DNA of 32,000 nt from Candidatus Hermodarchaeota archaeon (GTDB taxonomy: Archaea; Asgardarchaeota; Heimdallarchaeia; Hodarchaeales; Hodarchaeaceae). Below are positions 5,381-10,987 of this stretch, one piece after another. Made by a program: the position numbers and the translations under genes. The stretch covers positions 153,047 to 185,046 of the forward strand of contig JBHLKY010000008.1 in NCBI GenBank assembly GCA_048886185.1. The letters run 5' to 3'. A model generated the notes under the pieces. The model did not search any database. It had not been told where the DNA came from and saw only the letters and a program-made list of their open reading frames with translations. Every line of letters starts with the position of its first letter. The first letter of the stretch is position 1.

Positions 5381-6481
5381 TCAGTCCCAATGGAGAGCAT
5401 ATCTCAAAAGTCCAACAATTCCTCCAAATGTCTTCATACGGTTGGCATTTTCACTTTGAGACGAGACAAGGAAAATCCTACCACGGGTTTTTTCTACCTC
5501 ACGAAGTACTTGTTGTACTTCATCTGGACTGATCCCATCGCTCCCTCTTAAAAGAGAGTCCAGAGAGATTAATGTCTCTATAGCTCCCGTGCTAGCGATT
5601 TTTTTAATTTCAGTAAATCCATATGCCACATTTGCGCTTCCTTGATTCATTCTCTTGAAAAATTCATCCATCAAATTGTTTTCTTCAAAAACTTGGAAAT
5701 CTATTGCAAGTTTATCTACAGCCTCCATTTGTAAGAGCTCTGATAATCCAACACGGTTTCCACCACTTAAAGAACCAGCAACAATTACAATTAGATTCTC
5801 TTTAGAAAATTTTATCCTTAAAAATGTGGCTAATTGTTCTTTAACAAAACCAGGACCACCTAATACGATATTCTTAGTTTCAGGTAAGATTTGTCGGTTA
5901 ATGATCAGAGCAATTCGCTCAAAGAAAGATTGAGTCTGCTTTGAACGAATTTTTTCTTTTGTAAGTTTTCGTGAAATATGAGATTTTTCATGAGCTATTA
6001 CAGTAAGATTATAGTTATCAAGAAGGCCAATACACACTTCTGCTTTATCAGCAGCAATAAGACATATTTTAGGTTTCTTACTTGCTTCTTCAGCCTTTTT
6101 CAGTAATTCAAGATAATATTTTGACCATTCAGGTTTAATTATAGTTATTACTTTTGTTAATTCCAAATTGAGGGTGTGGTAAGAGCCTATTGATACATAT
6201 TGTTCAGGACCTTGGAAAATTTTCCCCTTAACGCGAAGCCGATTGCTTATTGAACTATCTTGAAAGGCGAAATCTTCTGCTTCAATTCCTATAACCATTG
6301 TGATACGTTGACTATCGTCACCAGATCGTCCCTCGCTTCCTGAGCGTCTAACTCTTCTACTAGATTTAGATATAACGCGATCTCCAATACTTATAATATT
6401 TGAAAGGACATAAAGATCAGTTGCATTTTCAGGTCGTACAACAACCTTTCCATTCTTCATGTCTATCTTCAGAATACGCAT
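5381..6481 (-). CDS. pelA: Ribosome rescue factor Pelota/Dom34
   Basis: eRF1-like fold motifs: PENATDLYVL, RLRVKG, GSYHTL, GGPGFVK, AYG and GGIVGLLRY. Confidence 0.93.
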   Translation of the reverse strand: MRILKIDMKNGKVVVRPENATDLYVLSNIISIGDRVISKSSRRVRRSGSEGRSGDDSQRITMVIGIEAEDFAFQDSSISNRLRVKGKIFQGPEQYVSIGSYHTLNLELTKVITIIKPEWSKYYLELLKKAEEASKKPKICLIAADKAEVCIGLLDNYNLTVIAHEKSHISRKLTKEKIRSKQTQSFFERIALIINRQILPETKNIVLGGPGFVKEQLATFLRIKFSKENLIVIVAGSLSGGNRVGLSELLQMEAVDKLAIDFQVFEENNLMDEFFKRMNQGSANVAYGFTEIKKIASTGAIETLISLDSLLRGSDGISPDEVQQVLREVEKTRGRIFLVSSQSENANRMKTFGGIVGLLRYALHWD

Positions 6482-6527: not shown

Positions 6528-6884
6528 TCAAAATAATTTCAAGGTTGAAGTGATTTCTTCAACGTTTCGTTGAGCATGAGGCCCAATGCCAAGTGCCGTT
6601 GTTGTATTTGGAGGAAGTTGAGTTCTTCCAGCATCATCAATTTTTACAACAATGACTCCAGTAGCTCGAAGCCTTTGTTCCAGTTTGAGTAATTCATCTT
6701 CAGATTCAACTGCCAGTACAATTTTTTTTTGACCAGTGTTCCACCATAATGCAAATTCATTCGGTTTTTCCCGCTTAGATTTGATGGCAGCTGCAACTGC
6801 AGCATGGGATGCTTGAGCTGCAGCTTTACCCTTGGACATATTCAAATCTTTTCGGAGAATAATGACTTGCTTTAATTCTAGCAA
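6528..6884 (-). CDS. pth2: Peptidyl-tRNA hydrolase, Pth2 type
   Basis: KQVIILRKDLNMSKGKAAAQASHA, GQKKIVL, DAGRTQ, TALGIGP. Confidence 0.96.
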   Translation of the reverse strand: MLELKQVIILRKDLNMSKGKAAAQASHAAVAAAIKSKREKPNEFALWWNTGQKKIVLAVESEDELLKLEQRLRATGVIVVKIDDAGRTQLPPNTTTALGIGPHAQRNVEEITSTLKLF

Positions 6885-6976
6885 TCACTAATCACACCTT
6901 TAAATCGACTTGTGAGAGGGGCTGTTATTAATCACAAGTAATGAAACTAGTCCTTCTTTCAATTCCCTTGTGATAT

Positions 6977-7072
6977 TAATCCTCAGAGAGGTACATGAAC
7001 ATCATTAACGAACTCAAATGGTGTCCTGTTTAGAATTCGTATTCAGTTTAGGTCAGTATCATCACGGGTCTA
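6977..7072 (-). ncRNA. Box C/D methylation-guide sRNA candidate 1
   Basis: On the minus strand: box C GUGAUGA (7065-7059), 12-nt guide, box D' CUGA (7046-7043), hairpin ACGAAUUC/GAGUUCGU, box C' AUGAUGU (7005-6999), 12-nt guide, box D CUGA (6986-6983); imperfect terminal stem UAGACC/GGAUUA. Confidence 0.8.
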
Positions 7073-7142: not shown

Positions 7143-7661
7143 TTACATTACTAGCTCTTGGCCTTTCGTGATTTTGATCCGACAGGGAGTTGGAAATTTA
7201 GCTTTTCCGCGACGTAAGGCATCTTTGGCTAAAGCTAAGTTTTCCGGGTATGTTCGTATAAAAAGAACACGATCTCCTTCAAAAACTCGCGCAGCAACGC
7301 TAATAATCTTTCCAAAAGCCTTTCGCATCCCATCTTGCAGCCGATCTGCCCCAGCTCCAGTCATCATTTTATTCTCACGTAATCTATGATGGGGATAGAC
7401 ACAAACACGGTAGTGATAGTTATCCCTTCCAAGTTTTCGCGTTAAAAAACGATTAACATGAATACGAGCTGCTTCAAGGGCATTATGTGAAATCTGACAT
7501 CGTTCATCAGTGATCAATGAGACTTCTAGCGGGAACTCTTTTTCTGGTGATCCGAAATCAAAAGACCTTATTTTAGGCTCAGGACCACCTTTAATATATT
7601 TCTTCCGTGTGTAGGGTGGTCTATCAACACGAGAATAGCAATATGCTGGCCTTTTTCCCAT
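7143..7661 (-). CDS. rpl10e: 50S ribosomal protein L10e (uL16)
   Basis: MGKRPAYCY, ALEAARI, RENKMMTGAGADRLQDGMRKAFGK, KFPTPCRI. Confidence 0.98.
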   Translation of the reverse strand: MGKRPAYCYSRVDRPPYTRKKYIKGGPEPKIRSFDFGSPEKEFPLEVSLITDERCQISHNALEAARIHVNRFLTRKLGRDNYHYRVCVYPHHRLRENKMMTGAGADRLQDGMRKAFGKIISVAARVFEGDRVLFIRTYPENLALAKDALRRGKAKFPTPCRIKITKGQELVM

Positions 7662-8153: not shown

Positions 8154-8527
8154 AATTGTAGTAAATTTTTTCCATCTACCCATAATTTAAAATTCTTGGA
8201 ATTCCTACGTTATCCCAGCAAGCAAAAAGAACTAACCCTTGTCCTGCGGGTTCATTCACTATGAGGTATGTATTTAAGGGGCCCCTAAGGCCCAATAATG
8301 AATATTAATAGATTATATAACGATTCAAGCGAATTTCACTGCTTGTAAGTGATTTCAATTCATGAGGTTTGGCCAATCATAATAATTCAGATAGAGGCCT
8401 TATTAAAAAAAATTAAACACCAATCACGCAAGTGGAACCGCATATTCATCATTATTATCCTGATTCAATCTAATTTCGTAAAGTTGTAACGTATTATGAT
8501 TATACATCTTGTTCATTATAATGAAAT

Positions 8528-10885: not shown

Positions 10886-10987
10886 TGGAAGGAGCACCTC
10901 CGAACTCAAGATCTTCATCATTTAAGACATAAATAGATGTATTTTGTGCCTTATCGGGAGGGCTAGAGCCGTCATTGGATCCTTCCA
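10886..10987 (-). ncRNA. Box C/D-like sRNA candidate 2
   Basis: 8-bp terminal stem UGGAAGGA/UCCUUCCA; box C AUGACGG (10975-10969), 11-nt guide, D' CCGA (10957-10954), hairpin UAAGGCA/UGUCUUA, C' AUGAUGA (10921-10915), 12-nt guide, D CGGA (10902-10899). The C/D deviations are compensatory (C-G pair). Confidence 0.65.

Follow-up and report, generated by a model that had tools for sequence, protein, structure and literature searches.

The stretch of DNA analysed here, 32,000 nucleotides of a Candidatus Hermodarchaeota archaeon of the order Hodarchaeales (contig JBHLKY010000008.1; hereafter the window), carries an unannotated box C/D guide RNA in the spacer between rpl10e and pth2, read from the minus strand at 7065..6983. 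We consider it highly probable that this is a genuine double-guide box C/D small RNA (sRNA) that guides methylation in helix 34 of the small-subunit (SSU) ribosomal RNA, this being the best explanation of the evidence as a whole. The four boxes follow one another in the order C, D′, C′ and D, and both guides are exactly 12 nt long; in these respects, and in the position of the element, an initial annotation made from the sequence without database searches was right. The length of ~96 nt given there takes in flanking sequence, but the span from box C to box D, 83 nt, still exceeds the usual 50-60 nt. The RNA starts 77 nt beyond the stop codon of rpl10e, and neither strand has an open reading frame (ORF) of at least 40 residues that overlaps it. 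When the full C-D′-C′-D arrangement was written as a strict regular expression, it returned three matches in the 4.84-Mb genome and none in the reversed-sequence control.

Conservation in relatives, which the initial annotation had named as a check, is borne out: the boxes are kept across the genus and in a sister family of the same order (f2). The genus is represented by 21 further genomes (Ca. Hodarchaeum-type metagenome-assembled genomes, hereafter congeners), and a BLAST-type search found one copy of the sRNA in 20 of them, at 77-91% identity, with the match limited to the RNA itself. The gene order rpl10e - sRNA - pth2, with the sRNA on the coding strand, is kept in all 21 genomes and in f2; the flanking proteins diverge (Rpl10e down to 74% and Pth2 down to 68% identity). 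The remaining congener (G015, 70% complete) gave no sRNA match, and because its rpl10e locus is reduced to a 19-residue remnant of the gene, this absence is uninformative. When 62 other genomes of the class were searched with a covariance model (R1), no member came to light beyond the genus.

The alignments show which parts of the RNA are held constant. Invariant or nearly so are the UGAUGA core of box C, ACUGACCUA, CUGA, GGACACC, UGAUGU, CAUGUACCUC and the D box, and the guide cores among these, ACUGACCUA for D′ and CAUGUACCUC for D, do not vary in 21 genomes. The flanks of the sRNA and most of the D′-C′ spacer vary freely, and the D′-side guide measures 13 nt in three orthologues. Box C conforms to RUGAUGA in 19 of 21 orthologues. 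The two exceptions (G001 and G016) combine a box C of GUGACGA with a box D of CCGA, which jointly turns the U.U at position 3 of the kink-turn (K-turn) into C.C (columns 11 and 90 of alignment A2). A box C of GUGACGA or AUGACGA is always accompanied by a box D of CCGA, and this pairing is seen in two separate lineages (G001/G016, and G019 of f2).

Predicted guide targets in helix 34

The targets were read from congeners (G001, G002, G008 and G016), because the rRNA of this genome is itself unassembled. The references comprised one full large-subunit (LSU) rRNA (L001) and three full SSUs from congeners, with further ones from other families of the class. In three congeneric genomes the D′ guide forms 10 contiguous Watson-Crick (WC) pairs with UAGGUCAGUA, within the SSU stretch GGUAGGUCAGUA at about position 1138. 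The D guide forms 12 pairs (9 WC and 3 G.U) with SSU GGAGGUGCAUGG at about position 982, and its genus-consensus form CCAUGUACCUCA forms 11 pairs with the same stretch (10 WC and 1 G.U). The chance of either guide match is ~0.01 for a random 12-mer searched against SSU and LSU together. When aligned to E. coli rrsH, the N+5 nucleotides correspond to E. coli 1051 for the D guide and 1197 for the D′ guide, and the N+5 position is a G-C pair in both duplexes. These two residues lie on opposite strands of 16S helix 34 (1046-1067/1189-1211). The two matches thus fall on one helix, the D guide on its 5′ strand and the D′ guide on its 3′ strand.

The initial annotation had left the D′ target open, and it can now be predicted to be SSU UAGGUCAGUA on the 3′ strand of helix 34. 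The D guide had been assigned there to 23S rRNA near E. coli G2570, and this site has to be given up: the complete congeneric LSU (L001) contains no D-guide match of more than 8 WC pairs, its best pairings being rich in wobbles, with 6-8 WC pairs. Contig C26 does contain a stretch fully complementary (WC) to the D guide, but it is part of an ORF and was set aside as a chance match. SSU contigs from the four source sediment runs yielded mixed archaeal fragments that map but are not attributable to this organism; among the variants listed from them none is well supported in the three target stretches, and they were not used as evidence. The SSU gene of G008 (L016) is 2225 nt long, ~750 nt longer than the others, which is consistent with an rRNA intron or insertion.

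The orthologue in family f2 (G019), which occupies the same rpl10e-pth2 spacer and was found through synteny alone, bears on the choice of targets. Its layout is ggcgcg-AUGACGA-UAACUGACCUGCU-CUGA-27-nt hairpin spacer-AUGAUGA-GCGUGCACUACU-CCGA-gcgcc, with UAACUGACCUGCU as the D′ guide, GCGUGCACUACU as the D guide and the two ends in lower case as the strands of the terminal stem. At exactly the positions where these guides depart from their counterparts in the genus, the SSU of other families of the class departs from the genus SSU (class consensus GGCAGGUCAGU against GGUAGGUCAGU in the genus, and GGUAGUGCAUG against GGAGGUGCAUG). Although the guides have changed, both N+5 nucleotides are the same two Gs. 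This apparent co-variation of guide and target is strong but indirect, the f2 SSU being unassembled and the class-consensus SSU standing in for it.

Several points weigh against the methylation-guide reading. Expression of the RNA is itself predicted from the sequence, and a look for RNA runs that contain this DNA listed none. The SSU and LSU of this genome are not assembled, and universal rRNA words are absent from it too. The single-sequence fold of the RNA is no better than those of shuffles (z 0.43), and the terminal stem consists in this genome of CC/GG plus two further pairs (about 2+2 bp); it reaches 5-8 bp in some orthologues (G001/G016 and family f2), and short or absent terminal stems are common in archaea. 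Rfam returned no match at gathering scores, the best sub-threshold model being DdR8 (19.8 bits vs 80) and the sR models, of 52-57 positions, scoring 9-11 bits vs gathering scores of 38-45. The correspondence of G(Ec1051) and G(Ec1197) to yeast Gm1271 and Gm1428 and to human Gm1328 and Gm1490, which would hold by our numbering, comes from counts along 18S rRNA that were cross-checked against anchors. Finally, a U.G wobble stands invariably in the middle of the D duplex, and the two D′-guide nucleotides nearest the box are unpaired, leaving 10 bp.

The last two features would also suit an RNA that pairs with helix 34 solely to assist rRNA folding or processing, as the chaperones U14 domain A and snR4 do, and leaves one or both sites unmethylated; archaeal double guides acting on both strands of one helix have indeed been proposed as chaperones (Dennis 2015, PMC4644070). 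However, both N+5 positions are canonical G-C pairs on residues that by our numbering are methylated in eukaryotes, the 12-nt spacing and the consensus boxes are those of active guides, and f2 keeps the same N+5 residues despite its changed guides, so that we regard a purely chaperoning RNA as unlikely. We give hardly any credence to the idea that the element acts in cis within the rpl10e-pth2 mRNA, for instance as an L7Ae-binding K-turn regulator, or that its motifs fell into this arrangement by chance. The genes on either side of the RNA do run in one direction, the RNA itself lacks a conserved promoter or terminator, and L7Ae-binding K-turns are known from mRNA leaders (PMC5539422), but the empty reversed-genome control and the conservation of the element across two families speak against chance. 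The coordinates of the double-guide sRNA, which remains our preferred interpretation, are collected in Table 1 with those of its neighbours.

Table 1. Parts of the box C/D sRNA and adjacent genes (window coordinates)
Feature	Position	Strand	Basis or remark
Box C, GUGAUGA (DNA GTGATGA)	7059..7065	-	sequence reading and orthologue alignment
D′ guide UACUGACCUAAA (DNA TACTGACCTAAA), 12 nt	7047..7058	-	predicted to select the SSU G equivalent to E. coli 1197
Box D′, CUGA	7043..7046	-	invariant in 21 aligned genomes
D′-C′ spacer, 37 nt	7006..7042	-	sequence reading
Internal stem, 5′ strand ACGAAUUC (DNA ACGAATTC)	7033..7040	-	pairs with 7015-7008
Loop motif GGACACC, candidate accessory rRNA-pairing element	7020..7026	-	near-invariant in alignment
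Internal stem, 3′ strand GAGUUCGU (DNA GAGTTCGT)	7008..7015	-	covariation and centroid fold
Box C′, AUGAUGU	6999..7005	-	UGAUGU core invariant in 21 aligned genomes
D guide UCAUGUACCUCU (DNA TCATGTACCTCT), 12 nt	6987..6998	-	predicted to select the SSU G equivalent to E. coli 1051
Box D, CUGA	6983..6986	-	sequence reading and alignment
rpl10e (uL16/L10e), upstream neighbour, same strand	7143..7661	-	ORF
pth2 (peptidyl-tRNA hydrolase), downstream neighbour, same strand	6528..6884	-	ORF

The hairpin between D′ and C′

The stem between D′ and C′ is real. Six of the eight pairs of the helix show changes on both sides, and 92.7% of the cells are paired in alignment A2; a shift of the 3′ partner by 1-3 columns lowers the paired share to 24-45%. 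The observed covariation score was reached by none of 500 column shuffles, and RNAalifold agrees. Compensatory changes in the orthologous spacers thus bear out the stem that the initial annotation had seen here as an interrupted hairpin of 11 bp, which in this genome consists of the 8-bp ACGAATTC/GAGTTCGT helix and an AAA/TTT extension. In the centroid fold the extension (AAA/UUU in the RNA) surrounds the loop that contains GGACACC. Some orthologues have a clean G.U/A-U continuation right after CUGA, a place at which this genome has one extra U, and the last U of C′ can, to judge from the sequences, pair with the invariant A that precedes D′.

Because the 8-bp stem covaries, the C′/D′ motif is a stem-closed K-turn and not the kink-loop (K-loop) of archaeal sRNAs. 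The RNA likewise departs from the canonical K-loop layout in its dimensions, with a 37-nt spacer and 83 nt from box C to box D vs a short loop and 50-60 nt. A Snu13-like protein was considered as the cause of the stem-closed K-turn and dismissed, since the L7Ae of this genome is clearly of the archaeal type (E 1e-37 to A. fulgidus L7Ae vs 1e-21 to human 15.5K).

The loop of the hairpin carries a conserved motif of its own. GGACACC is present in 20 of 21 aligned genomes and in about nine further variants from public genomes and metagenomes, G032 alone having GGACACA, and the nucleotides on either side of it vary freely. A metagenome scan returned only more Hodarchaeum-type copies, all with GGACACC, and one unrelated match, with no new lineage. 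Each of the three congeneric SSUs has the complement GGUGUCC once, at 1016-1022 (E. coli 1081-1087). It stands 23 nt 3′ of the D-guide target, in the interval that separates this from the D′-guide target, and the chance of such a placing for a preset 7-mer is ~0.0085. In the present genome 11 nt of the loop, AACAGGACACC, are complementary to GGUGUCCUGUU, as is the case in 0.0002 of shuffles. The f2 loop is unrelated, and its apical GACUUAAC is complementary to SSU GUUAAGUC at 1024-1031, which adjoins GGUGUCC (0.03 of shuffles). An alignment published by Dennis et al. (PMC4644070) shows the stretch GUUAAGUC to be conserved throughout archaea. A third methylation guide in the loop was considered and rejected: the flanking AUGAU and UUGA are not conserved in the alignment, and the spacing is far too short.

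The complementarity of the loop to the SSU suggests extra base-pairing in the style of small nucleolar RNAs (snoRNAs), so that the motif may serve as a third, accessory rRNA-pairing element and the rRNA may be clamped at three places near the C′/D′ end. This would add to the helix-34 guide function, and we think it plausible, though somewhat short of an even chance. It would account for a motif that is kept in Hodarchaeum-type copies (apart from the GGACACA of G032) while adjoining loop nucleotides vary, for the placing of GGUGUCC between the guide targets in three congeneric SSUs, for the 11-nt match in this genome and for the match of the different f2 loop to the neighbouring GUUAAGUC. In yeast the conserved extra base-pairing elements, which aid methylation, are likewise found mainly between D′ and C′ (PMC3116282). 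The geometry would fit as well, for the 3′ end of the D target and the 5′ end of the D′ target should both emerge at the C′/D′ K-turn that bears the hairpin. However, the accessory pairing is short (7 bp in most species), and the flanks of GGACACC neither keep the pairing nor co-vary in most orthologues; with the whole spacer considered, most orthologues reach no better than a p of about 0.14. The spacer of G002 has an unrelated 11-nt match at position 216 of its own SSU, a reminder that chance matches arise under multiple testing. Loop and SSU partner are both invariant, so covariation cannot lend support; the f2 SSU is unassembled, and the two other hairpin-type sRNAs of the genome described below have no such loop complementarity.

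Those two RNAs favour another role, to which we give not quite even odds: the hairpin would be a structural insertion that makes a K-loop into a stem-closed K-turn, with the loop serving for protein contact or for stability of the ribonucleoprotein (RNP). The genome has at least two more conserved C/D RNAs (on contig C19 and at 10886-10987 of the window) in which a D′-C′ hairpin occurs without a conserved loop, which suggests that the stem is a habit of the lineage independent of loop function, and the stem covaries yet is free in sequence. A structural insertion leaves unexplained, however, why exactly seven loop nucleotides are frozen throughout the genus in this sRNA only, and why the loops of the genus (family f1) and of f2 both match one short stretch of rRNA.

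Related RNAs and known box C/D systems

The RNA on contig C19 (minus strand, 6123-6189) reads GUGACGA-AGGUUUUACCGA-CCGA-[24 nt]-UGAUGA-GAACUGGCAA-CUGA, the 24 nt forming a perfect 9-bp hairpin. Its D′ guide makes 10 of 10 pairs with the SSU at about position 466, and its D guide makes 8 pairs at about position 997, a short way beyond the helix-34 site on the 3′ side. The second RNA lies within the window (10886-10987, minus strand) and is C/D-like, of the hairpin type, with the non-consensus boxes AUGACGG and CGGA. Conserved in 18 of 21 congeners, it has a long terminal stem and a base-paired, variable D′-C′ insert of 32 nt. Its guides, CUCUAGCCCU and GAUCUUGAGU, do not vary, and even their best matches to rRNA are weak, at 8-9 pairs with wobbles counted in. 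Contig C55 (8513-8563) holds a candidate with the canonical layout, which measures 51 nt between the outer ends of boxes C and D and recurs in duplicate on C66 (9-59). It has an 8-bp terminal stem and only 5 nt between D′ and a degenerate C′ (AUGUUGA), and its guides have no match in congeneric rRNAs. These findings suggest that the genome holds both hairpin-type and compact architectures; the D′-C′ stem is frequent in this lineage and is not obligatory.

A genome-wide scan for half-units (box-guide-box with at least 9 pairs to rRNA) gave 40 matches vs 17 in the control, and is unfit as a census because nearly all matches lie in coding sequence. A scan for terminal stems pointed to a weak C/D candidate in the window at ~8387-8452 (minus strand), between a histone gene and dnaG, where AUGAUGA and CUGA stand 66 nt apart with a 6-bp terminal stem and no clear D′ or C′ boxes.

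Elsewhere in the Heimdallarchaeia, G065 (family f7) encodes a complete short sRNA, its D′ and C′ boxes 4 nt apart, whose D′ guide is predicted to select G(Ec1051), and G037 (family f3) has a D′ half that would select the same residue, followed by a short spacer (~9 nt) before the contig ends. Like the RNA described here they carry a 12-nt guide to the same predicted G(Ec1051), but that guide stands in the D′ position with a short D′-C′ gap, whereas here it stands in the D position beyond a 37-nt spacer. No guide to the 3′ strand of helix 34 was found for these short sRNAs. The G065 sRNA lies outside the rpl10e spacer. In G034 and G065 (L111 and L112), which belong to two other families of the class, rpl10e is followed by a tRNA gene with an intron at the place that the sRNA occupies in Hodarchaeales. 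Five matches to the D-guide pattern in family f31, returned by a phylum-wide scan, all fall in one conserved protein-coding gene and were discarded as false positives.

With the canonical K-loop sRNAs of Pyrococcus, Sulfolobus and Pyrobaculum (Nolivos 2005; PMC7994747, PMC6009581), the RNA shares the RUGAUGA and CUGA boxes, the 12-nt guides, the N+5 rule, the genes for L7Ae, Nop5 and fibrillarin, and an intergenic site without a promoter of its own. Those sRNAs measure ~50-60 nt and have a loop of a few nucleotides, in contrast to the 83 nt and the 8-bp stem-closed K-turn seen here. A functional parallel is offered by Nanoarchaeum equitans, whose sR17 (helix 28) and sR15 (helix 30) are double guides on both strands of one 16S helix (PMC4644070). 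There, too, D and D′ guides address two distant strands of one SSU helix, with methylation and a chaperone role predicted. The N. equitans RNAs are, however, described as ordinary short sRNAs with a central D′/C′ motif, whereas the predicted target of the present RNA is helix 34, and its D′ and C′ boxes are set apart by a covarying hairpin of 37 nt whose loop is conserved. The supplement of the same study (Dennis 2015, PMC4644070) predicts many sites within the regions Ec1020-1120 and Ec1190-1210 in other archaea.

In eukaryotes, helix 34 carries two such methylations beside the A site, which in yeast are Gm1271 (guided by snR40) and Gm1428 (snR56) (PMC2794176; PMC8817022). The equivalents are Gm1328 and Gm1490 in human, Gm1272 and Gm1431 in Arabidopsis, and Gm1266 and Gm1506 in Dictyostelium, and the guides of these sites are U32A/SNORD32A (printed as 'U232A') and U25/SNORD25 in human, snoR21 and snoR19 in Arabidopsis, and CD37 and CD1 in Dictyostelium (PMC2794176, PMC8817022). 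We mapped the sites on 18S rRNA in the contexts GG(A/U)G[G]UGCAUGG and CA/UA[G]GUC. The counts were anchored on ac4C1280/1337, nine nt 3′ of Gm1271/1328 in a CCG context, on the PE-34_18S primer at ~1316-1336 (PMC5464676), on the spacing of m7G1575/1639 to G1428/1490, and on Cm1639/1703, which corresponds to E. coli C1402. All anchor counts agree, and from these cross-checks we infer that the sites predicted here are equivalent to the eukaryotic ones. Yeast, human and Arabidopsis use two separate snoRNAs where here one RNA would serve both sites. With snR40/SNORD32A and snR56/SNORD25 only the predicted target residues coincide; beyond the guides there is no similarity by Rfam, and convergence on conserved sites rather than descent from an ancestor of snR40 and snR56 is possible.

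The architecture of the RNA is also reminiscent of eukaryotic C/D snoRNAs with extra base-pairing, such as snR70 (PMC3116282), which have a longer D′-C′ region and in it a conserved element complementary to rRNA near the methylation site, the corresponding pairing here being predicted. An internal stem that brings D′ and C′ together has been described in eukaryotic snoRNAs (Kiss-Laszlo 1998, as cited in PMC3116282). Eukaryotic snoRNAs, however, assemble with Nop56 and Nop58, whereas this genome has a single Nop5 and the RNA has two near-consensus, symmetric box pairs, as in archaea.

Machinery, biogenesis and implications

The proteins of a box C/D particle are all encoded: fibrillarin, a single Nop5 and L7Ae were identified by matches to PF01269, PF01798 and PF01248 above cut-offs, and the nop5 and fibrillarin genes are adjacent. 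Among the orthologous loci, neither a conserved TATA-like box at a fixed distance nor an intrinsic terminator was found beside the sRNA, and because of this an independent transcription unit is unsupported. The sRNA is probably cut out of the rpl10e-pth2 transcript; co-transcription followed by trimming to the protein-protected core is the route taken by Sulfolobus sRNAs (PMC7994747).

Two inverted repeats lie near the sRNA. In the window, UUAAUAUCACAAG ... CUUGUGAUUAAUAA form a repeat of ~14 bp with a loop of ~27 nt (~6916-6969, minus strand), between the 3′ side of the sRNA and the start of pth2; it is not obviously conserved in orthologues and could be a processing structure or a structure of the 5′ untranslated region. 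In a subclade of congeners (G018, G004, G031, G013 and G002), a 13-15-bp inverted repeat, GAGAUAUCCUUCA... / ...UGAAGGAUAUCUC, flanks the sRNA from ~95 nt upstream to ~25 nt downstream; none was seen in the genome of the window. This long-range repeat may be a processing stem.

We propose the following course of events. The sRNA would be transcribed together with rpl10e and trimmed to its protein-protected core. L7Ae would bind both the C/D K-turn and the C′/D′ motif, a full K-turn with an 8-bp closing stem, and the particle would be completed by a dimer of Nop5 and two copies of fibrillarin. In helix 34 the 5′ strand would be bound by the D guide and the 3′ strand by the D′ guide. The N+5 rule would lead to 2′-O-methylation of G(Ec1051) and G(Ec1197), two residues close to the decoding site. 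The bound RNA may also hold the two strands, which are ~150 nt apart in sequence, side by side, and in this way act as a folding chaperone.

Archaeal sRNAs are compact and symmetric and have a K-loop, whereas eukaryotic snoRNAs are longer and often have an internal stem and accessory pairing elements. Recent phylogenies place the Hodarchaeales nearest to eukaryotes. In this genome at least three sRNAs, the one described here among them, join archaeal symmetry with a stem-closed internal K-turn. What appears to be new is this stem-closed variant of the archaeal C/D sRNA together with a loop motif complementary to the SSU between the two targets; a literature search found no description of Asgard C/D sRNAs, although such reports may exist. 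SRNA finders based on the K-loop, and the Rfam models, miss the hairpin-type class, so that counts of Asgard sRNAs are underestimates.

A broader proposal, which we put forward tentatively and with considerable doubt, is that Hodarchaeales build snoRNA-style C/D RNAs with a stem-closed K-turn and accessory rRNA pairing, one such RNA clamping three stretches of the SSU 3′ major domain and installing both helix-34 methyl groups. If this is true, these methyl groups are made by one RNA in a lineage close to eukaryotes and were later split between two snoRNAs in yeast, humans and plants. The RNA would then provide the first archaeal example of extra base-pairing of the snoRNA type, and an architectural intermediate between sRNAs and snoRNAs. 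It raises the questions of whether the helix-34 methylations are older than eukaryogenesis, and whether features that seem specific to snoRNAs are of Asgard archaeal origin.

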